From assembly GCA_016939415.1 (NCBI GenBank), contig JAFGGZ010000032.1:1815-65814 (forward strand): a stretch of 64,000 bases of DNA. Direction: 5' to 3'. Position numbers and translations under genes: made by a program. This document shows, piece by piece, positions 970 through 60,251 of the stretch. Position 1 is the stretch's first letter. Each line of letters starts with the position of its first letter. This DNA comes from Candidatus Iainarchaeum sp. (lineage in GTDB: Archaea > B1Sed10-29 > WALL01). Below the pieces are notes generated by a model. It did no database searches and had not been told where the DNA came from. It saw nothing but the letters and a program-made list of their open reading frames with translations.

Positions 970-1257
970 ATGCTCATGGATTCGAGTTTCTTTTTACGGG
1001 AGAAGCCGGTCAGGGTTTTAATAGCCTTGTCTGACAAATCTAGGTCGTGGTATGCTCATTTGCTTTCGAAAGAGGTTGATGTGACTTACGCTCATCTTAT
1101 CAATGTTTTGGATGCGCTTTCTGTCGCGGGGTTGGTTTCTTTTGAGCGTGAGGGCCGCATAAAGCTTGTGAGGATTACTGATGACGGTTTGGAGCTTGCT
1201 AAGGACTTTGAAACTGTTGTTAGGCGCTTGTCAAAGCTTTCCAAGTCTGGGAAATAG
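970..1257 (+). CDS. small winged helix-turn-helix DNA-binding protein (ArsR/MarR-like)
   Basis: 95 aa. The pattern SWYAHLLSKEVDVTYAHLINVLDALSVAGLVSFEREGRIKLVRITDDG fits a recognition helix followed by a beta-hairpin wing. An AT-rich region at 840–965 containing TTATAT lies upstream and may be the promoter. Confidence 0.5.
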   Translation: MLMDSSFFLREKPVRVLIALSDKSRSWYAHLLSKEVDVTYAHLINVLDALSVAGLVSFEREGRIKLVRITDDGLELAKDFETVVRRLSKLSKSGK

Positions 1258-7567: not shown

Positions 7568-10312
7568 GTGTTTTCTCCAGCGCCCCTTAAAAACATTTCT
7601 GCACATAATCCGGGCGTGACCGATTTTTCCAGTATTCACGAGCCTGTGCGAGCGCTCGCACTCCAGCGCTTCAAAGAAGAGACGCCGACGCAGTCGGCAG
7701 CCTTCCCGTCGATACTCAGCGGAAGGCACACGCTCGTCATCGCTCCGACCGGCACGGGCAAGATGGAGGCAGCGTTATTGCCTTTGCTGAGTAAGCTCTC
7801 TTCTGGCGAGTACAAGCCAATCACCGTCTTGTACATCACGCCGCTGAAGGCGCTTAACAGGGACATGCTTTCTCGTATTGAGTGGTGGTGCCGGCACCTT
7901 GGCATATCCTTGTCAGTGCGTCACGGCGACACTCCGCAGTCCGAGCGCGCCAAGCAGACGAAGAACCCTCCGTCGATCATGATAACGACGCCCGAGACAT
8001 TGAATTCCTTGCTGACTGCTAGGATTCTCGGCCAGCACCTCAAGAACGTGAAGTACGTTGTCGTCGATGAGGTGCACGAGCTTGTGGAGTCGAAGCGCGG
8101 CACTCAACTATCCCTCGCTTTGGAGCGCTTGGTGGAGAAGGCCGGCGAGTTCCAGCGCATCGGCCTCAGCGCCACTGTCGGTGACGCGGCGTTGACCGCG
8201 CGGTTCCTTGCAGGGAAGCGCTCTTGCTCTATCGCTCGCGCGGATGTGGAGCGCGGCTTGAAGCTTTCTGTTGAGTGCCCGGCCTACGCGCGGCCCGATG
8301 TTAAGCTCTCAAAGTCGCTGCGCATGCGGCCCTCGACAGTAGCGCGTTTGCGCAGGCTGCACGAGCTTGTTGAGGCGCATGGCAGCGTGCTGACGTTCGT
8401 GAACACGCGCAGCATGGCAGAGCTGCTTTCGTCCAGGTATGCGGCGTGGGACGTGAAGAACAAGGTCCGCGTGCATCACGGATCGCTTTCCAAGGAGGTG
8501 CGCGTTGTTGCTGAGGAGGAGTTCAAGGACGGCCACGTGAAGGGCTTGTTCGCGACGAGTTCTCTGGAGCTTGGCATAGACATCGGCCGCGTGGACCTTG
8601 TTGTCCAGTACATGTCCCCGCGCCAGGTGTGCAGGCTCGTGCAGCGCGCGGGCAGGTCCGGCCACAGCATGGCCAAGGCACCGGAAGGCGTTATTCTCGC
8701 TCAGGACGCAGAGGATGCTTTGGAGTCTGCGGTGATCGCCCGCCGCGCGTTGGCTGGGGATCTGGAGCCCGTGCGCATCCACGAGATGTCTCTTGACGTG
8801 CTTGCCCACCAGCTTGTTGGATTGAGTTTGGAGTACGGCCGAGTGAATGTCTCGGATGCTGTCCGCATCTTTTCGAGGGCGTTCCCGTACCAGTCCTTGT
8901 CAAAGAGCGTGGTTTCGTCCGTGCTCGAGCAACTGGCTTCAGAGCGGTTCGTGTTCGTGGATGGCGCGTCGTACAAGGCGCGCAATGCTTTCAAGTACTA
9001 TTTCTCGAATCTCAGCACGATCCCTGACGAGCAGCGGTTCTTTGTCCATGATGTCGTCAGCCAGAAGAATGTGGCCTCGCTGGATGAGGCGTTTGTCGCA
9101 GAGCATCTGTATGCCGGCCAGGTGTTCATCACGAAGGGCGTGCCTTGGCGCGTCCTTGACGTGGGCGAGAGGGAGGTTGTCGTGGAGCCGGCTTCTGACA
9201 TCACTGCGGCTGTGCCGGATTGGGCGGGCGAGGAGATTCCCGTTCCTTTCGAAGTGGCTCAGGAGGTGGGGGCGCTGCGCCGCGCTGCAGCACGGTCTGT
9301 CAAGGCGTTGGATGCGTATCCCTTGTCTGCTGACGCGCGCGGGACAGTAATTTCTTCTGTGCGGGAGCAGAAGAAGAGCTGTTTCGTTCCTGACGACAAG
9401 CACGTGTTTCTGGAAGGATTCAACGACGTACTGGTTTTGCACACACATGCTGGTACGCTCGTGAACGAGACGCTTGGCAAGGTGTTGTCGTCCCTACTCA
9501 CTTCGTTTACGGGTGGCGCAATCTCTTCGCGTGTTGATGCGTACCGCATCGTGTTCGAGTTCCAGACGGGTCCGAGGCCGGACCTGATTGAGCATTACCT
9601 GCGTTCTTTGGATGCTGATTCCATTCGCGGCATCCTTGTGTCTTCCTTGTCGCGGTCTTCTTTGTTCAAGTGGAAGTTCATTCACGTCGCGAAGCGGTTC
9701 GGCTTGCTTTCGAAGGACGCGGACTATTCCCGCATCAGCCTGCGGCGCCTTATAGGAGCGGTTGTTGATTCTCCTGTCGCTGACGAGGCGATGAAAGAGC
9801 TTTTCGTGGAGAAGTTTGACGTGGATAACGCGAAGCTGTTCTTGAATCGTTTGCAGTCCGGGAGCACGTCGTTCTCGTTCGTCAGTACCGCGTCGCCGTC
9901 TGAGTTCGCTTCTTTTGCCAGAAAGGCTTCGGACATATTCCTGCCGGAGCGTGCTCACGCCGAAATCATGGAGATGGTGAGGGCGCGCATCTTGGACAAG
10001 CGCGTTGGCTTCAAGTGCTTGAATTGCGGGCATGTGTGGTACGAGGTCGTTGCATCGCTTGCTGATGAGCCCAGGTGTGCGGAGTGCGGAGCGAAGCTCG
10101 TTACCCTGCTAGGCCAGAAGGATGGCGAGCGTGTGGCGCAGCTCATCAATGCGTATGGCCGTAGGGCTGTCATTGCTCTTCAGGCGCATGGCGTTGGCCC
10201 GGAGTTCGCTGCTCGCTTGCTGAAGCGGTTGCGGAAGAGCGAGGACGAGCTGATTAACGACTTGGTTGAGGCCGAGCGCACGTTCGCGCGAACGAAGCGT
10301 TACTGGAGCTGA
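7568..10312 (+). CDS. lhr: Lhr-family large ATP-dependent DEAD/DEAH-box helicase
   Basis: 914 aa. Motifs include Q (PTQSAAFP), Walker A (APTGTGKM), YITPLKALNRD and DEVHEL, with a helicase C domain (QRAGRSGH). There is a long Lhr-type C-terminal extension and a terminal zinc ribbon CLNCG...CAECG. Confidence 0.85.
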   Translation: MFSPAPLKNISAHNPGVTDFSSIHEPVRALALQRFKEETPTQSAAFPSILSGRHTLVIAPTGTGKMEAALLPLLSKLSSGEYKPITVLYITPLKALNRDMLSRIEWWCRHLGISLSVRHGDTPQSERAKQTKNPPSIMITTPETLNSLLTARILGQHLKNVKYVVVDEVHELVESKRGTQLSLALERLVEKAGEFQRIGLSATVGDAALTARFLAGKRSCSIARADVERGLKLSVECPAYARPDVKLSKSLRMRPSTVARLRRLHELVEAHGSVLTFVNTRSMAELLSSRYAAWDVKNKVRVHHGSLSKEVRVVAEEEFKDGHVKGLFATSSLELGIDIGRVDLVVQYMSPRQVCRLVQRAGRSGHSMAKAPEGVILAQDAEDALESAVIARRALAGDLEPVRIHEMSLDVLAHQLVGLSLEYGRVNVSDAVRIFSRAFPYQSLSKSVVSSVLEQLASERFVFVDGASYKARNAFKYYFSNLSTIPDEQRFFVHDVVSQKNVASLDEAFVAEHLYAGQVFITKGVPWRVLDVGEREVVVEPASDITAAVPDWAGEEIPVPFEVAQEVGALRRAAARSVKALDAYPLSADARGTVISSVREQKKSCFVPDDKHVFLEGFNDVLVLHTHAGTLVNETLGKVLSSLLTSFTGGAISSRVDAYRIVFEFQTGPRPDLIEHYLRSLDADSIRGILVSSLSRSSLFKWKFIHVAKRFGLLSKDADYSRISLRRLIGAVVDSPVADEAMKELFVEKFDVDNAKLFLNRLQSGSTSFSFVSTASPSEFASFARKASDIFLPERAHAEIMEMVRARILDKRVGFKCLNCGHVWYEVVASLADEPRCAECGAKLVTLLGQKDGERVAQLINAYGRRAVIALQAHGVGPEFAARLLKRLRKSEDELINDLVEAERTFARTKRYWS

Positions 10313-17898: not shown

Positions 17899-17987
17899 GC
17901 CTTAGCTAACCATATCGGTATATTTAAGTCTTTCTCGGCATGCCGCACGCCCCTCCCTTATTAAGCGCCCGCACCAAAAAGTACGTG

Positions 17988-20102
17988 ATGGACGCGAGCA
18001 TTTTCGGCGTGCAGTCCTTTAACCCCGTTCAGGAAGCGGCTTTTGCCACGCGCTTCATAGAGAACCGCTCCAACCTCGTTGTGGCTACGCCCACTGGCAG
18101 CGGCAAGACGATTGTTGCCATGGCTGCAGCCCTGGATGCGATCCGCAGGGGCAAGAAAGTCGTTTACACCTGTCCGTTGAAGGCTTTGGCCAGCGAGCAG
18201 CATGACACATTCAAGCGCTTGCCCGTGCGTTGCGCGCTGAGCACGGGCGACATGGATAGTTCTGACAAGTGGCTCGAGAAGTACGACCTCATCTCCACGT
18301 CGTATGAGAAGCTGGATTCACTGATGAGGCATAAGGCGCCGTGGATTGCGGATGTCGGCTTGTTGATCGTCGACGAGATCCATCTCCTGGACAGTGATCG
18401 CGGTCCGACTCTTGAGATTGTCGTTACCCGGTTCAAGTACTTGTTCCCGCGCGTTCAAGTGATTGCGTTGAGCGCTACGATCCCTAATGCCGGTGAGATA
18501 GCGAAGTGGCTTGGAGCAGAGTTGGTGTTGATGGATTGGCGGCCCACGCACTTGGCGAAGGGCACGTATGTGGATAAAACGTTGAGGACTACTGATGGCG
18601 TGATCGCCGTGTCTTCCGGGAGGAAGACGCCGGTGCAGCAGCTTGTGGATCGCACGCTCTCGAGGGAGGGTTCTGCTCTCGTGTTCTGTAATTCGCGCCG
18701 CTCTGCCGAGGCGGAGGCTGAGCGGCAGAAGCCTGTTGCTTTGCCTCACGTCGATGAGAAGAGGCTGGTAGTTCTTGCTGACAAGGTGGAGCATGCGCTG
18801 GAGGCTCCCACGCGCCAGTGCCGCAGGCTTGCGGATTGCGTGCGCGGCGGGTCGGCGTTCCACCACAGTGGGTTGGTGGGCAGGCAGCGCGAGCTCGTCG
18901 AGAGCGCGTTCAGGACGGGCTTGCTCCGCGTCATCAGCGCCACCCCAACGCTCGCGATGGGCGTGAACCTTCCTGCTGATGCTGTTATCATGGCTTCGAT
19001 GAAGCGCTACACCGAGCGGGGGTCTGTTGACATACCTGTGCGGGAGTGGCTGCAGTGTGCTGGCCGGGCTGGCCGCCCGCAGTTCGGCCGTGATGGCTTG
19101 GCGGTCATCGTTGCCAAGGACGCGGCTGAGGAGGAGCATTATTGGGAAACGTTCGTGGATACTGCAGCTGAGGATGTTCATTCGCAGTTGGGTTGGGAGC
19201 CGGTGCTCCGCACGCAGGTGCTCGCGAGCGTTGCGCTGGGTATGACCCATTCCCGGGAGCGTTTGCGAGAGTTTTTGTTGCATTCATTCCACGCGTTCCA
19301 GTATGGCGAGATTGCTTCTTTGGAAGCGAAGATCGACACGATCCTTGAGGAGCTGGTTGGCATGGGGTTTGTCGTTTTCTCAGGTAGCAAGCTCCTTCCC
19401 ACCCAGCTCGGGAAGCGGGTTTCCGAGCTGTATCTGGACCCTGTTTCTGCTTACAAGATGGTCCGCGCTTTGCGCGCTGATCTGTCAAGGATGGGTTACC
19501 TGTTTGTTTTAGCTGATACTGAGGAGTTGCGGCCGTACTTCAGGGTTGGTCGTGGGGAGGAGGAGTCGCTGTGGGTGTCGGCGTACGCCGAGGACGGGTT
19601 GGGTGTTTCAGTGGAGTCTGCGGCTTTTGAGGACTATCACTTCCTGGAGAAGTACAAGACCGCCACGCTTTTGCGTGATTGGATTGAGGAGAAGAGCGAG
19701 GATGGCATTCTCGATGATTTTGGGGTGGCGCCCGGGATCCTGCGGGCGAAGCTTCAGAACGCGGATTGGTTGGTGTACTGCGCTGAGGAGTTGTGTAAGC
19801 TTGAGGGCATCAAAAAGTTTGGGGATTTGTCTGTCGTGCGCCGCAGGCTGAAGTATGGCTGCAAGGAAGAGTTGATTCCTCTCGTGGAGCTGAAGCATGT
19901 CGGCCGCGTTCGCGCGCGGCGCTTGTTCGCTAATAACTTGCGCACGCTGCACCAGCTTCGGGACGTTCCCTTCTCTGACTTGTCGCGCATTCTCGGGCCG
20001 AAGGTGGCGGAATCTGTCAAGGCGCAGCTCGGCCAGGAAGTGAGCGCTGTGAATCGCGTTGTTGCGGGGGTTGCGCCGCAGACGAGCCTGAGTGACTTCT
20101 AA
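17988..20102 (+). CDS. hel308: Hel308/Hjm Ski2-like DNA helicase
   Basis: Motifs include Q (FNPVQEAAF), Walker A (TPTGSGKT), DEIH, SAT and HHSGL. The helicase C domain QCAGRAGRPQFG is followed by winged-helix, ratchet and HhH regions. Size is about 700 aa. The ATG-defined ORF opens at 17940; the MDASIFG start at 17988 is preferred. Confidence 0.9.
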   Translation: MDASIFGVQSFNPVQEAAFATRFIENRSNLVVATPTGSGKTIVAMAAALDAIRRGKKVVYTCPLKALASEQHDTFKRLPVRCALSTGDMDSSDKWLEKYDLISTSYEKLDSLMRHKAPWIADVGLLIVDEIHLLDSDRGPTLEIVVTRFKYLFPRVQVIALSATIPNAGEIAKWLGAELVLMDWRPTHLAKGTYVDKTLRTTDGVIAVSSGRKTPVQQLVDRTLSREGSALVFCNSRRSAEAEAERQKPVALPHVDEKRLVVLADKVEHALEAPTRQCRRLADCVRGGSAFHHSGLVGRQRELVESAFRTGLLRVISATPTLAMGVNLPADAVIMASMKRYTERGSVDIPVREWLQCAGRAGRPQFGRDGLAVIVAKDAAEEEHYWETFVDTAAEDVHSQLGWEPVLRTQVLASVALGMTHSRERLREFLLHSFHAFQYGEIASLEAKIDTILEELVGMGFVVFSGSKLLPTQLGKRVSELYLDPVSAYKMVRALRADLSRMGYLFVLADTEELRPYFRVGRGEEESLWVSAYAEDGLGVSVESAAFEDYHFLEKYKTATLLRDWIEEKSEDGILDDFGVAPGILRAKLQNADWLVYCAEELCKLEGIKKFGDLSVVRRRLKYGCKEELIPLVELKHVGRVRARRLFANNLRTLHQLRDVPFSDLSRILGPKVAESVKAQLGQEVSAVNRVVAGVAPQTSLSDF

Positions 20103-56085: not shown

Positions 56086-56295
56086 GCGCGGAACAACTCA
56101 TGGGTTGTATAAAAGGCTTACATCATGGACTTTGCGAGCTTCCTGGCTTTCTTCAAGCACTTTCTGTGGAACCATTGCCCGCCGAATTTCTTTTCTGCCC
56201 CCGGCTGGCCGCAGACAGAGCATGCTTCACCCGCACTTTCCTGCATGCCTGTGATTAAGAAAGGCTTTTTATTATCCTTTCTTCCTTACTGTCTT

Positions 56296-56757: not shown

Positions 56758-57587
56758 ATGCCGACGACGAGATACGACGGCTTCTCGACATCGCTCTGGA
56801 GAACGACATCGGCCCAGGCGACGTGACTGCAGCGCGCATTATCGGCAGGGACCAGCGTGTGACCGCAGTGTTCGTCACGCGTTCCGCAGGCGTCGTCGCT
56901 GGCATCGACGAAGTGGAGTACATGGCTGAAAAGCTCGGCCTTGGGTTCAGGGCGCTGAAGAGGGATGGCGGGGACATGGGGTCCGGCGACGAGCTGGCTG
57001 TAGTGGAGGGCAGGGCTTATGACGTGCTTTGCGCGGAGCGCACTGCCTTGAACGTGCTGGCGAGGATGAGCGCCATCGCTTCCGAGACCAGGGATTGGTG
57101 CTCGCACGGAGTGCCTGTTGCTGCGACGCGCAAGACGCCTCCAGGATGCCTCTTCCTGGACAAGAAGGCGGTGCGCATCGGCGGTGGCCTGACGCACCGG
57201 ATGGCCTTGTGGGATAAGACGCTGGTGAAGGACACGCACTTGGAGTGCCTGAGGACGAGGGGGCTGTCTCACCACGAGGCGTTTCAGGACGCTGTCACGC
57301 GGGGTGAGCGGCCGGTGGAAGTCGAGGTGGAGTCCGAAGATGACGCGCTCTTCGTCGCGGGCCTGGGCGCGGATATAATCATGCTCGACAACTTCTCTCC
57401 GGAGAAGGCGAAGGCGATCATACCGAAACTGCGTTCCATAAGCCCTTGCGTTCGCGTGGAGTTGTCCGGCGGCATCACGCGCGACAACATACGGGAGTAC
57501 GCTGCTTGCGGAGCCGACTTTGTTTCGTCGAGCGCCATCACTGCTGCGGTAGTGCCTTTGGACATGACCATGCGCGTTCAGGAGTAG
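56754..57587 (+). CDS. nadC: nicotinate-nucleotide pyrophosphorylase (quinolinate phosphoribosyltransferase)
   Basis: A QAPRTase N-terminal domain is followed by a C-terminal TIM barrel (RKTPPG, IIMLDNFSPE, ELSGGIT). The start forms an ATGA overlap with the nadM stop. Confidence 0.85.
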   Translation: MNADDEIRRLLDIALENDIGPGDVTAARIIGRDQRVTAVFVTRSAGVVAGIDEVEYMAEKLGLGFRALKRDGGDMGSGDELAVVEGRAYDVLCAERTALNVLARMSAIASETRDWCSHGVPVAATRKTPPGCLFLDKKAVRIGGGLTHRMALWDKTLVKDTHLECLRTRGLSHHEAFQDAVTRGERPVEVEVESEDDALFVAGLGADIIMLDNFSPEKAKAIIPKLRSISPCVRVELSGGITRDNIREYAACGADFVSSSAITAAVVPLDMTMRVQE

Positions 57588-58291
57588 AGTCTTGCAACGC
57601 TTCTCCCCGATGGCGTTATCGACACTTCCTTCTTCTTTCCCCTGCGCTTGTACTCCACGTAACCGAATTCAGCCAGTCTATCGATCTTGCGCGATATGCT
57701 CAACAGCTCTGATTTCGTGGTCTCTCTATTCAGGGATTTCAGCAGTTGGGACAGGGATTCCACGCTGCCGGAATCACTGATCTTGGAAAGCGATTCCCAG
57801 TCCAGTTCCTCGAGTTGTATGGGCAGTGGGGGTATGAACACCGGTTCTTTCGCTATGGCTGCTATCTCCTGGTCTCCGGCATTCAGGTACTCGGCGGCCT
57901 TGCAGTATGTCACCGGCGCGTGGTTCACTTGGCACGCGAGGAATAGTGCTGTTGCCACGGTCTTGTTGCCTGAGGATATGTCCGCGAACACTTCGTGGCC
58001 GTTCGCCTTCTCCCCGAATATTGTCTTGCTTATCGCGGCGAACGCTGCGGGCACATCAAAGAAGTCTACGTGGATTTCTGTCACTTCGAAGACGAAGGGG
58101 TATGGGTTGAATCCGCTTTTTTTCGTGAGGGCCTGTTTTATGCGCTGGACGTGCTTTTCCACGTCCCTCTCCAGTTTTTTCGAGACTTCGTTGGTGTTCC
58201 GGATGATGATGACCTTGTTTGGCGCGTTGATGGACACGGCTGCGAGCGTGCGGTTCGTCTCCAGTCCCTGTGCCACTATGAGCGTTCTCAT
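57578..58291 (-). CDS. Csa3-like/HFX_2341-like transcriptional regulator: CARF-like Rossmann N-domain plus C-terminal winged helix
   Basis: Start set at MRTLIVAQGLETNRTL. The N-domain reads VIIIRN...VTEIHVDFFDVPAAFAAISKTIFGEKANGHEVFADISSGNKTVATALFLAC, a beta-strand, helix and Gly/Ser-loop pattern like CARF or DUF6293. The C-terminus LAEFGYVEYKRRGKKKEVSITPSGRSVARL is a wHTH. The ATG-defined ORF extends to 58507. Confidence 0.5.
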   Translation of the reverse strand: MRTLIVAQGLETNRTLAAVSINAPNKVIIIRNTNEVSKKLERDVEKHVQRIKQALTKKSGFNPYPFVFEVTEIHVDFFDVPAAFAAISKTIFGEKANGHEVFADISSGNKTVATALFLACQVNHAPVTYCKAAEYLNAGDQEIAAIAKEPVFIPPLPIQLEELDWESLSKISDSGSVESLSQLLKSLNRETTKSELLSISRKIDRLAEFGYVEYKRRGKKKEVSITPSGRSVARLYS

Positions 58292-58809
58292 GCCTTCAGC
58301 TCCTTCTTCATGATCCTGAGGAACTCTTTCGAGTACAACACCCTTTCCCGCGACAGCTTCTTTCCTTCTTTGGTGAGCAGCTGGCGGTTCGCGTTGCTCA
58401 GCGCTATCGCTCTCGTGTCTTCCATTGATGTGTCTTTTGCGCCTGCCATGATGAACGCCCGTGCAATGCCGACTGCGCCGAGTGCGTCGATGAGGTTTGC
58501 GTCCCATGCCAGTCTCTCTTCAGTGGTCTTGGGTTCTGTTCGCGAGCGCTCTACTGACTCGAACACTTCAGCGACCTGGATTTCCGAGAATCCGTGCTGT
58601 CTGAGGAAGAACCATATCTCTTTCCTGTAGCGCTTCGTCCGGCCGTGGAAGTACACTGTGAGCAGCATCAGCTCTTTGTTCACGTCCTTCTCGCTGCTCA
58701 ATTCCTTCACGGTCTTGAGCATGCGCTGTATGTGGGAGTAGTTGTGCGCCTTGTCCCTCGCGTCGTAGAGGGGCTTGACGAACCGCTCCACTACCCTCAT
58801 GTCTATCAT
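58288..58809 (-). CDS. HD-domain phosphohydrolase
   Basis: Start set at MIDMRVV. The HD motif reads AHNYSHIQRM ... H...D, within a helical HD fold. The stop forms an ATGA overlap with the downstream regulator start. Confidence 0.55.
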   Translation of the reverse strand: MIDMRVVERFVKPLYDARDKAHNYSHIQRMLKTVKELSSEKDVNKELMLLTVYFHGRTKRYRKEIWFFLRQHGFSEIQVAEVFESVERSRTEPKTTEERLAWDANLIDALGAVGIARAFIMAGAKDTSMEDTRAIALSNANRQLLTKEGKKLSRERVLYSKEFLRIMKKELKA

Positions 58810-58946
58810 CACACCACCGTGCTTGCATAAGCGCTCGCCGTATTTAATGGTAGCGCTGGGTACGGTAAGTAACACGAGAGATTTACTGTCGTGTTCTGTC
58901 TTCTGCTCGCGTCAAAAACCCTTTTATTCCCCGGCCTGCAAAGCCT

Positions 58947-60251
58947 TTGCACGGTGATTACATCCGCATCACGTTCTTCGAGTTCAACCACGGTCCGGAG
59001 CGCATGCGCGCTGTAGAGGAAGCTCTTTCCGCGCCTGTTTCTGAGCCCGCGCTCAGGCAGCTCCTGGATCATTCCTCCGCTCACTTTGTTGTTGAGCAGG
59101 TTTCCCGCCTGGGTTCCGACCTGATCACAGAGGGCAGGGACAGTTACTCGCACCAGTCCCAGCGCTACGTAACGTTCAGGGAGGGCATGAACGATTACTT
59201 CACCCCGGAGTCTATCAGGGCCGCAGGCTTGCAGAAGGGTTATGACGCGCTCATGCAAGGGCTTTTCGAGGCGTACTCCTTCCTTGTTGGGAGAGGCATC
59301 CCTGCTGAGGACGCGCGTTTCGTGTTCGCGCTGTCCTTCAACTCCCACATCAGCGTCACTGTCCAGGGGCGGAAGCTCGTCGACTTCTTCGCGTTCTGCC
59401 TTCACTCCGACTACGGGGAGCTGCGCGCTGTCGGCGAGGCTGTCTTGACCGAGTTCGGGAAGCTGTTCCCGAACACTGCTCGGGCGCTATCTTGTGTTGC
59501 AGGCAACCATCCTCGTCCAGAGGAAAAGGAGCTCGTGTCGCGCGTCAACGCTTCTGGGTTCAATCTCGATGGTGTGACTCTCCTGAATCACACGCTGGAT
59601 CCTGTGTCGCGCTCTGCGATGGGCGCTTCGATCTGCTACAAGTCCGGCGCGCCGTCCGAGTACATGTCCAGCTTCGACAAGGATAAGCAGGAGAAGCTGA
59701 TCCGTCAGGTCGTGTCGATGGGTCATCACTCTGTGATAGAGCATTCCTCGTTCACATTCGGTTTTCCGATGAGCAGGGTGACGTACCAGCAACTGCGCAG
59801 GCATCGCTTGCCGGCCCGCTCTCACACTGACCTGGCTTCTGTGGGCGCTGGCTTCGAGTACGTGACGCCGCCGAGCATCGCTGCATGCAGGGAGTGCGCG
59901 CAGAGGTTTTCGGAGGCCATGGATGCCATCATTACCTTTCGGGAGGCGGCTTCTGGATCTGTGCCTGCGGTGGATCTGGGTTACGTTCTGCCGAACGCCG
60001 TGCAGATAGATGTCTTGCTGACGTCGAATGCACGGGACTTGATGCACATCCTGAACAAGCGGCTGTGCCAGCGCGCGCAGTGGGAGATCCGTGCCGTGGC
60101 TTATGGTATCGCAGAGCATTTGATTCGTCGCTGGCCAGTGCTCTTCGATGGGTTGGGTCCGGACTGCTTTGTGTCTCACTGCAGGGAGGGGAAGATGAGC
60201 TGCAGCCACCCTGAGGTCTACCGCGATTGGAGGGAGTCCCTCAACCGATGA
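58947..60251 (+). CDS. thyX: FAD-dependent thymidylate synthase ThyX, tandemly duplicated (434 aa)
   Basis: The C-terminal half carries the canonical ThyX motifs MGHHSVIEHSSFTF and QQLRRHR. The N-terminal half is a degenerate copy, HSSAHFVVEQVSRLGSDLITEGRDSYSHQSQRYVTF. The SQRY motif is retained, but RHR is replaced by EGR. Confidence 0.7.
   Translation: MHGDYIRITFFEFNHGPERMRAVEEALSAPVSEPALRQLLDHSSAHFVVEQVSRLGSDLITEGRDSYSHQSQRYVTFREGMNDYFTPESIRAAGLQKGYDALMQGLFEAYSFLVGRGIPAEDARFVFALSFNSHISVTVQGRKLVDFFAFCLHSDYGELRAVGEAVLTEFGKLFPNTARALSCVAGNHPRPEEKELVSRVNASGFNLDGVTLLNHTLDPVSRSAMGASICYKSGAPSEYMSSFDKDKQEKLIRQVVSMGHHSVIEHSSFTFGFPMSRVTYQQLRRHRLPARSHTDLASVGAGFEYVTPPSIAACRECAQRFSEAMDAIITFREAASGSVPAVDLGYVLPNAVQIDVLLTSNARDLMHILNKRLCQRAQWEIRAVAYGIAEHLIRRWPVLFDGLGPDCFVSHCREGKMSCSHPEVYRDWRESLNR

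Follow-up and report, generated by a model that had tools for sequence, protein, structure and literature searches.

In Haloferax mediterranei, the protein HFX_2341 has been described as a Csa3a-like global transcriptional repressor without linkage to cas genes and with an unknown ligand (PMC11434293). For Csa3a, an 18-bp palindrome has been described next to the B recognition element (BRE) and TATA box (PMC8699464). The CARF superfamily carries the signature [DN]x[ST]xxx[RK], and a polar Ser/Thr at the end of strand 1 is "often" present and not obligatory (PMC4012209). Among proteins of the HD fold, YpgQ is a Mn-dependent (deoxy)nucleoside triphosphate, (d)NTP, pyrophosphohydrolase with the metal ligands H29, H58, D59, and D124 (PMC8177086). 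This study concerns a two-gene operon, coding for an HD-like protein and a CARF-like regulator, in a 64,000-nt stretch of archaeal DNA (contig JAFGGZ010000032.1, positions 1,815 to 65,814 of the forward strand; hereafter the window). The host is a metagenome-assembled genome of Candidatus Diapherotrites (DPANN), in which exact matches identify the genes as locus tags JW834_02950 and JW834_02955. The explanation considered probable, with some room left for others, is that of a Csa3-like regulator of the HFX_2341 family which autoregulates through a palindrome and has a degenerate HD-fold gene as cargo, and not that of a conserved sensor-plus-degrader module.

The elements of the locus are given below, with positions counted in the window.
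57578-58291, minus strand: regulator gene, 237 aa, with the ATG at 58291 and the stop codon at 57578-57580 (open reading frame [ORF] and sequence).
58288-58809, minus strand: HD-like gene, 173 aa, of the YpgQ/YedJ/Lin1889 clade and its "HG" subfamily, with the ATG at 58809 and the TGA at 58290-58288.
58288-58291, minus strand: ATGA start/stop overlap from the HD-like gene to the regulator gene, read directly as TCAT on the plus strand.
58841-58848, minus strand: TATA-like box ATTAAATA, the likely operon promoter as judged from the sequence, 32-39 nt upstream of the HD-like ATG.
58869-58886, no strand assigned: 18-bp palindrome GTAA-N10-TTAC, which comparison of upstream regions suggests as the regulator's operator.
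58947-60251, plus strand: thyX, 434 aa, divergent neighbor of the operon, with which it has the palindrome-bearing intergenic region in common (PF02511 Thy1, 3.8e-62, in two stretches).

Both ORFs are real genes. The regulator starts with MRTLIVAQGLE, the same start being found in all homologues, 12 of which (E = 4e-69 to 1e-24) were retrieved among 5.8 billion proteins, and the HD-like protein has 486 HMMER matches at E <= 1e-3 among 1.8 billion cluster representatives. A longer GTG start for the HD-like ORF (58875, 195 aa) was rejected; it would overlap both the palindrome and the TATA box, and the homologues align from the ATG at 58809. The ATGA coupling of the 173-aa and 237-aa genes, which an earlier note on this DNA had claimed, can be read directly from the sequence at the place assigned to it. 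Overlaps of 4 nt join 4 of the 27 co-directional neighbor pairs in the window and are thus common in this genome, so that the overlap marks an operon and nothing more specific.

The regulator belongs to the HFX_2341/DUF6293 family and has a CARF fold followed by a winged helix, with an intact ligand-pocket signature. Its parts are as follows.
57827-58291, minus strand: CARF-like Rossmann domain, approximately residues 1-155, with six strands, of which strands 5 and 6 form a hairpin (AlphaFold2 model and fold matches).
57962-57982, minus strand: CARF signature [DN]x[ST]xxx[RK] in the form D104-I-S106-S-G-N-K110, directly after strand 4 (residues 100-104; 13-member alignment and model).
57581-57814, minus strand: C-terminal winged-helix region (PF22665 over residues 200-235; helices H165-174, H180-186, and H193-208; strands E212-217 and E220-225; invariant columns).

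The regulator scores above the Pfam cut-offs for both HFX_2341_N (PF19810; 49.9 bits against a cut-off of 30), which is present in all 13 members of the regulator family, and the DUF6293 C-terminal winged helix (PF22665; 28.0 bits against 27), and it matches the PADLOC CARF3--CARF models at 1.4e-18. It remains below the cut-offs for Csa3 (TIGR01884, 40.5 against 60.2 bits; Csa3_N, PF22662, 20.2 against 27). The AlphaFold2 model, built on the 13-member alignment, has a predicted local distance difference test score (pLDDT) of 88.6 and contains a six-stranded alpha/beta domain and then a winged helix. The strands of the first domain (E2-7, E26-32, E69-75, E100-104, E127-138, and E141-153) reproduce the six-stranded core of the CARF superfamily, including the beta-hairpin of strands 5 and 6. 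Foldseek comparison of the model with the PDB placed Csa3 first (2wte, apo; 6wxq and 6w11, bound to cyclic tetra-adenylate [cA4]; E ~1e-10), followed by the CARF-winged-helix ring nucleases Sis0811 and SSO1393 and then by Can2, Cam1, and Csm6, with a probability of 1.00 for Csa3, Crn1, Can2, Cam1, and Csm6. In the 13-member family alignment, D104, S106, and K110 of the signature are invariant and G108 is nearly invariant, and K193 and R201 of the winged helix are invariant across the family. The Csa3-like architecture proposed in the earlier note, a CARF or HFX_2341-type domain joined to a winged helix, is therefore borne out by Pfam scores above threshold, by a signature placed after strand 4, and by structural matches headed by Csa3 and the CARF ring nucleases, and the Gly/Ser-rich loop quoted there for the N-terminal domain, FADISSGNKTVATALFLAC, is found at residues 102-120. 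Searches of the regulator against the PDB, with the single sequence and with a profile, returned only noise and no significant solved structure, so that the CARF relationship is visible only through the Pfam and PADLOC profiles and the comparison of folds. CARF proteins bind a nucleotide-derived ligand, such as cA4 or cA6, in a pocket formed where the dimer subunits meet, and the regulator may do the same.

The palindrome GTAA-N10-TTAC is a new element of this analysis. Its site is within the 137 bp that separate thyX from the HD-like ATG, and it is the single match to this pattern in the 64-kb window, where 0.09 would be expected. Of seven related loci, six have an exact copy ahead of their regulator operon, and the probability of finding one by chance is 0.002-0.005 for each of the six. 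The loci (L) of the regulator relatives (P) are listed here.
L001, P0002 (52% identity, closest relative): the regulator is the first gene, with nothing between palindrome and regulator; a 61-aa ORF overlaps the regulator stop.
L003, P0004 (50% identity): a SerB-like HAD-IB phosphatase gene occupies the same ATGA-overlapping upstream position; an SHMT gene follows 20 nt downstream, and folP and folC adjoin the operon.
L013, P0005: the regulator is preceded by a divergent SHMT gene and followed by an overlapping DHH/DHHA1 gene.
L005, L006, and L007; P0007, P0008, and P0009 (42-44% identity): the regulators lie among genes for HsdR, a Piwi-domain protein, helicases, ThiF/E2/Multi_ubiq, Nmad3, and PD-(D/E)XK.

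The six copies start at L001:96, L003:5316, L013:1403, L005:5965, L007:5963, and L006:5951. Over approximately 124 kb, comprising the window and the related loci, there are nine matches, seven of which are at the upstream position of a regulator operon, and the other promoters of the same loci do not contain the full pattern. The palindrome is thus conserved upstream of the regulator operons, and its recurrence suggests that these operons may be autoregulated. Five loci have the regulator as their first gene, and in these the N10 spacer coincides with the TATA box (e.g., TTTATTAA), 17-32 nt before the ATG; in L001, the palindrome and TATA box are 19 nt before the regulator's own ATG, and no HD-like gene intervenes. 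Binding at such a site would occlude TBP and TFB, which implies autorepression where the regulator comes first. The window and L003 have an enzyme-like gene between the palindrome and the regulator; there, the palindrome lies 56-59 nt before the first ATG and is followed by a separate TATA-like box. That the HD-like gene stands under this predicted operator is the strongest argument for regarding it as co-regulated cargo. The invariant K193 and R201 of the winged helix fit the conserved half-site.

Some further features of the intergenic region and of thyX were observed. A 16-nt block, AATAAAAGGGTTTTTG, at positions 58913-58928 of the window is identical to approximately positions 55-70 of L001, and in the window it covers the TATA-like box of thyX. 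The divergent gene that is cut off at the contig end of L001 starts with MH... and may be thyX. The two Thy1 stretches in the window's thyX (58947-60251) suggest a tandem-domain (fused) flavin-dependent thymidylate synthase, in contrast to the usual single domain of approximately 220-250 aa.

The HD-like protein belongs by its fold to the YpgQ/YedJ clade of HD proteins. Its site is conserved and noncanonical, and the two altered segments of that site are given below.
58642-58647, minus strand: H55-G56 (CAC GGC), replacing the HD dyad and aligned to YedJ H58-D59.
58495-58503, minus strand: D103-A104-N105 (GAC GCA AAC), with N105 in place of the last metal-ligand Asp (alignments to YedJ, Lin1889, and YpgQ).

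In a phmmer search against the PDB, the HD-like protein matched YedJ (3gw7, 2.8e-10), Lin1889 (3b57, 1.2e-8), and YpgQ (5dqv, 1.1e-7). Its AlphaFold2 model (pLDDT 95.5) is all-helical and gave Foldseek template modeling (TM) scores of approximately 0.79 (0.77-0.80) to 3b57, 5dqw, and the clade. The protein does not match the Pfam HD family (PF01966), and its score against the YedJ equivalog model (NCBIfam PRK10119) is 51.7 bits, far from the cut-off of 286. When the metal ligands of YpgQ are mapped onto it, H29 and H58 correspond to H26 and H55, D59 is replaced by G56, and D124 is replaced by N105; chain 5dqv_A carries a tag that offsets its numbering by six residues, and with this correction D124 falls on the second Asp of the DAD motif. 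The earlier description of the upstream 173-aa product as an HD-domain protein therefore stands for the fold and fails for the dyad, which reads H55-G56. Since two of the four metal ligands are lost, the protein is unlikely to act as a canonical phosphohydrolase, and its likeliest role is that of a nucleotide binder or of an atypical enzyme. HDOD, the HD-related output domain, is a precedent for an HD fold that has lost catalytic metal ligands and is thought to be nonenzymatic.

The replacement is also found in other proteins. Among 146 aligned relatives, the dyad column contains D in 73 and G in 60, and the column of the last ligand contains D in 78, N in 35, and H in 21. The 26 closest relatives all have H22, H26, H55, G56, and D103, and because the HG replacement is kept across relatives, it does not represent decay in a single genome. 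A profile search found this "HG" subfamily (approximately 175 aa, HG...DA[NH]) in bacteria (Thermosipho, Laceyella, Clostridia, and cyanobacteria) and in DPANN archaea, its members being annotated just as "hypothetical" or "HD domain-containing." These relatives came from the full HMMER search, a word-index search with the HD-like protein having returned the protein itself alone. PADLOC returned nothing for the HD-like protein, not even Cas3-HD.

The pairing of regulator and HD-like protein is not conserved and is specific to this lineage. The neighborhood evidence comprises approximately ten loci; scans of genome contigs and of metagenome contigs with a closer regulator alignment yielded one already-known locus each. 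On the regulator side, the relatives carry a HAD gene, a DHH/DHHA1 gene, or a 373-aa ORF in place of the HD-like gene. On the other side, a CARF neighbor was found in none of three loci of HD-like homologues, which are as follows.
P0015 (38% identity, closest HD-like homologue), L008:430-1775, on a short contig: immediately preceded by genes for HEPN and KNTase_C proteins.
P0256: amid housekeeping genes.
P0018: with pyrF, a NUDIX gene, a canonical HD gene, and a cytidylyltransferase-like gene.

A conserved pairing is consequently not seen from either direction. The window, L001, and L003 have a wider synteny in common (AMMECR1, TPD, NadC, TYW1, and PRC barrel), which indicates that the regulator is a vertically inherited chromosomal gene in this lineage. 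The housekeeping neighbors of the operon in the window (thyX, nadC, an NMNAT-like gene, TYW1, and AMMECR1) are syntenic with those in related genomes. The G+C content of the operon (0.54) is typical of the window (0.56), and a horizontally transferred island was ruled out on this ground.

Several side observations were made in these neighborhoods. A small Cys-rich ORF of the window, MQESAGEACSVCGQPGAEKKFGGQWFHRKCLKKARKLAKSMM (approximately positions 56121-56246, minus strand), falls below the 50-aa ORF cut-off and matches the 61-aa ORF at the regulator stop of L001 with 71% identity across 41 aa; in the window, it is separated from the regulator by nadC and the NMNAT-like gene, which both lie on the opposite strand. 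The distant regulator clade of L005, L006, and L007 (256 aa) has defense-island-like neighborhoods. In L005 (6768-7889) and L007 (6768-7892), an overlapping ORF of 373-374 aa follows the regulator and shows faint phosphoribosyltransferase similarity and no other family. Searches of the PDB and PADLOC with the DHH/DHHA1 protein and the 373-aa ORF of the relatives returned nothing.

No cas gene was found in PADLOC scans of the 63 window ORFs, which gave only generic helicase, methyltransferase, radical-SAM, and PP-loop matches, and neither TRF nor a direct-repeat search of the 64-kb window detected a CRISPR array. The earlier statement that no cas genes are nearby is thus upheld, and the genomic association with CRISPR-cas that marks Csa3-type regulators is absent within 64 kb. 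A candidate second CARF gene ("CARF3" match, 8.9e-5) was rejected as a 95-aa stand-alone winged-helix protein (970-1257, plus strand) that matches only the winged-helix part of the Csa3/CARF3 models. The PADLOC matches to "Cas3," "BrxHI," and "HamB" were rejected as cas genes, since they come from two generic superfamily 2 helicases of 914 and 720 aa. These helicases (7568-10312 and 17940-20102, both on the plus strand) match BrxHI, SngC, DpdJ, and HamB strongly and the Cas3 helicase models weakly; no partner defense genes were detected for them, and they are probably housekeeping enzymes of the Lhr/Hel308 type. A weak match (~2e-4) to the Cas3-HD and Cas3b models from a window ORF other than the HD-like gene suggests another HD-domain protein. 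Nothing links the pair to CRISPR or cyclic-oligoadenylate signaling.

In the explanation regarded as probable, a dimer of the regulator would bind the 18-bp palindrome in its own promoter, a region in common with the divergent thyX, and this binding would respond to a small ligand, probably a nucleotide-like one, that occupies the CARF pocket where the two subunits meet. The regulator would control its own operon and possibly thyX. The HD-like gene would be lineage-specific cargo placed between the operator and the regulator gene, and its product would serve as a nucleotide binder or in some atypical role and not as a canonical phosphohydrolase. The pair is accordingly described as a fairly ordinary local regulator operon and not as a new signaling or defense module.

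Several observations weigh against this explanation. The Ser/Thr at the end of CARF strand 1 is absent from the regulator, which has V6-A7-Q8-G9 there, and a Ser occurs at position 7 in 2 of the 13 relatives. The operator role is drawn from the comparison of upstream regions and is putative; L014 has just a version of the palindrome with one mismatch and an N11 spacer, and in five loci, the left half-site GTAA is at the expected BRE position, so that the promoter consensus could explain it in part. In the window and L003, approximately 20 nt separate the palindrome from the TATA box downstream of it; the two do not overlap, which makes the sign of regulation at these two loci ambiguous. The HG subfamily keeps H22, H26, H55, and D103 invariant and D19 nearly invariant, and a metal site rebuilt with D19 or D103, and hence catalysis, is conceivable. 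Finally, genes of phosphoesterase superfamilies (HD-like, HAD, and DHH) are coupled to the regulator in three different relatives, and such recurrent partners could represent a real functional theme that is under-rated here.

A regulator that senses a metabolite of nucleotide or one-carbon metabolism is the alternative that survives best, although it is thought unlikely. The targets of this regulator would be thyX or glyA and, with them, an exchangeable cargo gene for a phosphoesterase or a nucleotide-binding protein, and the HD-like protein would act in the same pathway. The palindrome lies in the promoter region of the divergent thyX in the window and of the divergent SHMT gene in L013, and the operon of L003 consists of the SerB-like HAD gene, the regulator, and the SHMT gene and adjoins folP and folC. 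A close HD-like homologue (P0018) is accompanied by pyrF, a NUDIX gene, and a cytidylyltransferase-like gene. Deletion of HFX_2341 in Haloferax mainly de-represses nutrient-transport genes, which marks this family member as a metabolic and not a defense regulator (PMC11434293). However, this evidence comes from three or four phylogenetically related loci with a common wider synteny, so that the adjacency may be inherited and not selected. The SHMT gene is missing from the window and thyX from the other loci, the surroundings of the more distant regulators that have this operator are defense-island-like, and there is no further copy of the palindrome in 64 kb. In an extended form of this idea, which is also entertained only tentatively, the operator of a CARF-based metabolic regulator would be a landing site for lineage-specific genes (the HG-type HD-like gene, the SerB-like HAD gene, the DHH/DHHA1 gene, glyA, and the divergent thyX), the pocket would sense a nucleotide or phospho-metabolite of the pathway, and the degenerate HD protein would be a nucleotide-binding partner or a signal buffer. 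Around the operator in a few related loci, genes of three phosphoesterase superfamilies (HD-like, HAD, and DHH) recur, as do the one-carbon genes thyX, glyA, folP, and folC, a suggestive pattern that lends the metabolic reading some support.

The pair was originally taken to be a possible sensor plus degrader, in which the CARF domain would sense a cyclic oligoadenylate or another nucleotide messenger and the co-translated HD protein would degrade it, forming a ring-nuclease-like off-switch outside cas loci. This is now considered improbable, and two of the outcomes that the earlier note had listed as refuting it are observed, namely the lack of a conserved pairing and the placement of the HD-like protein in the YpgQ/YedJ nucleotide pyrophosphohydrolase clade. 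The intact CARF fold and signature, the best structural matches, which include cA4-bound Csa3 and ring nucleases, and the co-transcription of both genes behind the predicted operator are all consistent with it, and the genes coupled to the regulator in two relatives likewise code for phosphoesterase-superfamily proteins (HAD in L003 and DHH/DHHA1 in L013). However, two of the four metal ligands that define the HD site are replaced (G56 and N105), a type of replacement that inactivates YfbR, and the HD-like protein falls into the YpgQ/YedJ clade of (d)NTP pyrophosphohydrolases, and not into a phosphodiesterase clade, with relatives in mixed contexts. The pairing is absent from all other loci examined from either side, the HAD partner in L003 is SerB-like and adjoins the SHMT gene, which points to a metabolic logic of its own, and neither a cyclase nor a cas gene is present in 64 kb. 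A role of the regulator in a defense or abortive-infection system, with the HD-like protein as effector or modulator, is very improbable: CARF proteins are mostly defense linked (PMC4012209) and P0007, P0008, and P0009 lie among the HsdR, Piwi, helicase, ThiF/E2/Multi_ubiq, Nmad3, and PD-(D/E)XK genes, but the abortive-infection regulator once suggested for the window finds no support in its housekeeping, syntenic neighborhood (thyX, nadC, NMNAT-like, TYW1, and AMMECR1), in the typical G+C content of the operon, in the empty PADLOC result for the HD-like protein, or in a site without catalytic carboxylates.

The operon, for which autoregulation with a degenerate HD-fold cargo gene is the preferred explanation, contributes one more member of a known regulator family and one protein from a widespread but so far undescribed version of a known enzyme fold; it is not a new kind of system. 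The reach of the HFX_2341 family of Csa3-like, cas-unlinked regulators is extended from haloarchaea to DPANN archaea, and the family is supplied with a testable operator candidate, GTAA-N10-TTAC. For annotation, the widespread, unnamed YpgQ/YedJ-like subfamily without both carboxylate ligands is a warning that the label of hydrolase needs evidence. If the regulator does sense a metabolite, it would add to the evidence for CARF domains as general small-molecule sensors beyond CRISPR signaling.

Compared with known proteins, the HD-like protein resembles YpgQ of Bacillus subtilis (5DQV), YedJ of Escherichia coli (3GW7), and Lin1889 (3B57) in sequence and fold and keeps the His equivalents of YpgQ H25, H29, and H58. 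It differs from them in length (173 aa versus 205-231 aa), in the replacement of D59 by G56 and of D124 by N105, and in its membership in a separately conserved HG...DA[NH] subfamily. HDOD may be offered as an analogy, and only as such, for an HD fold that has lost catalytic metal ligands.

The Crn1-type ring nucleases (SSO1393, 3QYF; Sis0811, 7PQ2) have the same two-domain architecture as the regulator and the highest TM scores among its matches (0.53-0.54), whereas their sequence identity to it is 10-13% and the type III CRISPR context is missing. In the regulator, Ala7 follows strand 1 where the ring nucleases have a catalytic Ser, and the conserved K110 is a possible counterpart of the catalytic Lys. 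Csa3a (Sso1445; 2WTE, 6W11, and 6WXQ) is the best structural match over both domains. Its motif 2, Leu-x2-Gly-h-Arg, corresponds to I105-S-S-G108-N-K110 of the regulator, and it too has an 18-bp palindromic site by the BRE and TATA box, with a sequence different from that of the operator predicted here. In contrast, motif 1 is x-Q-G-L-E-x2-R in the regulator and T-h-G-F-[ND]-E-x4-R in Csa3a, and Csa3a is CRISPR associated, while the regulator has no cas genes nearby and scores below the Csa3 family cut-offs.

HFX_2341 is a protein of 308 aa from a haloarchaeon, whereas the regulator has 237 aa and a DPANN host. In addition, the regulator is the second gene of its operon, behind a degenerate HD-fold gene, and a palindromic operator is predicted for it, none having been retrieved for HFX_2341 from the available part of its report (PMC11434293). 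As judged from profiles and the published description, the two proteins are alike in having the same two Pfam families, a CARF-like N-terminal domain joined to a winged helix, and a chromosomal location with no adjoining cas genes.

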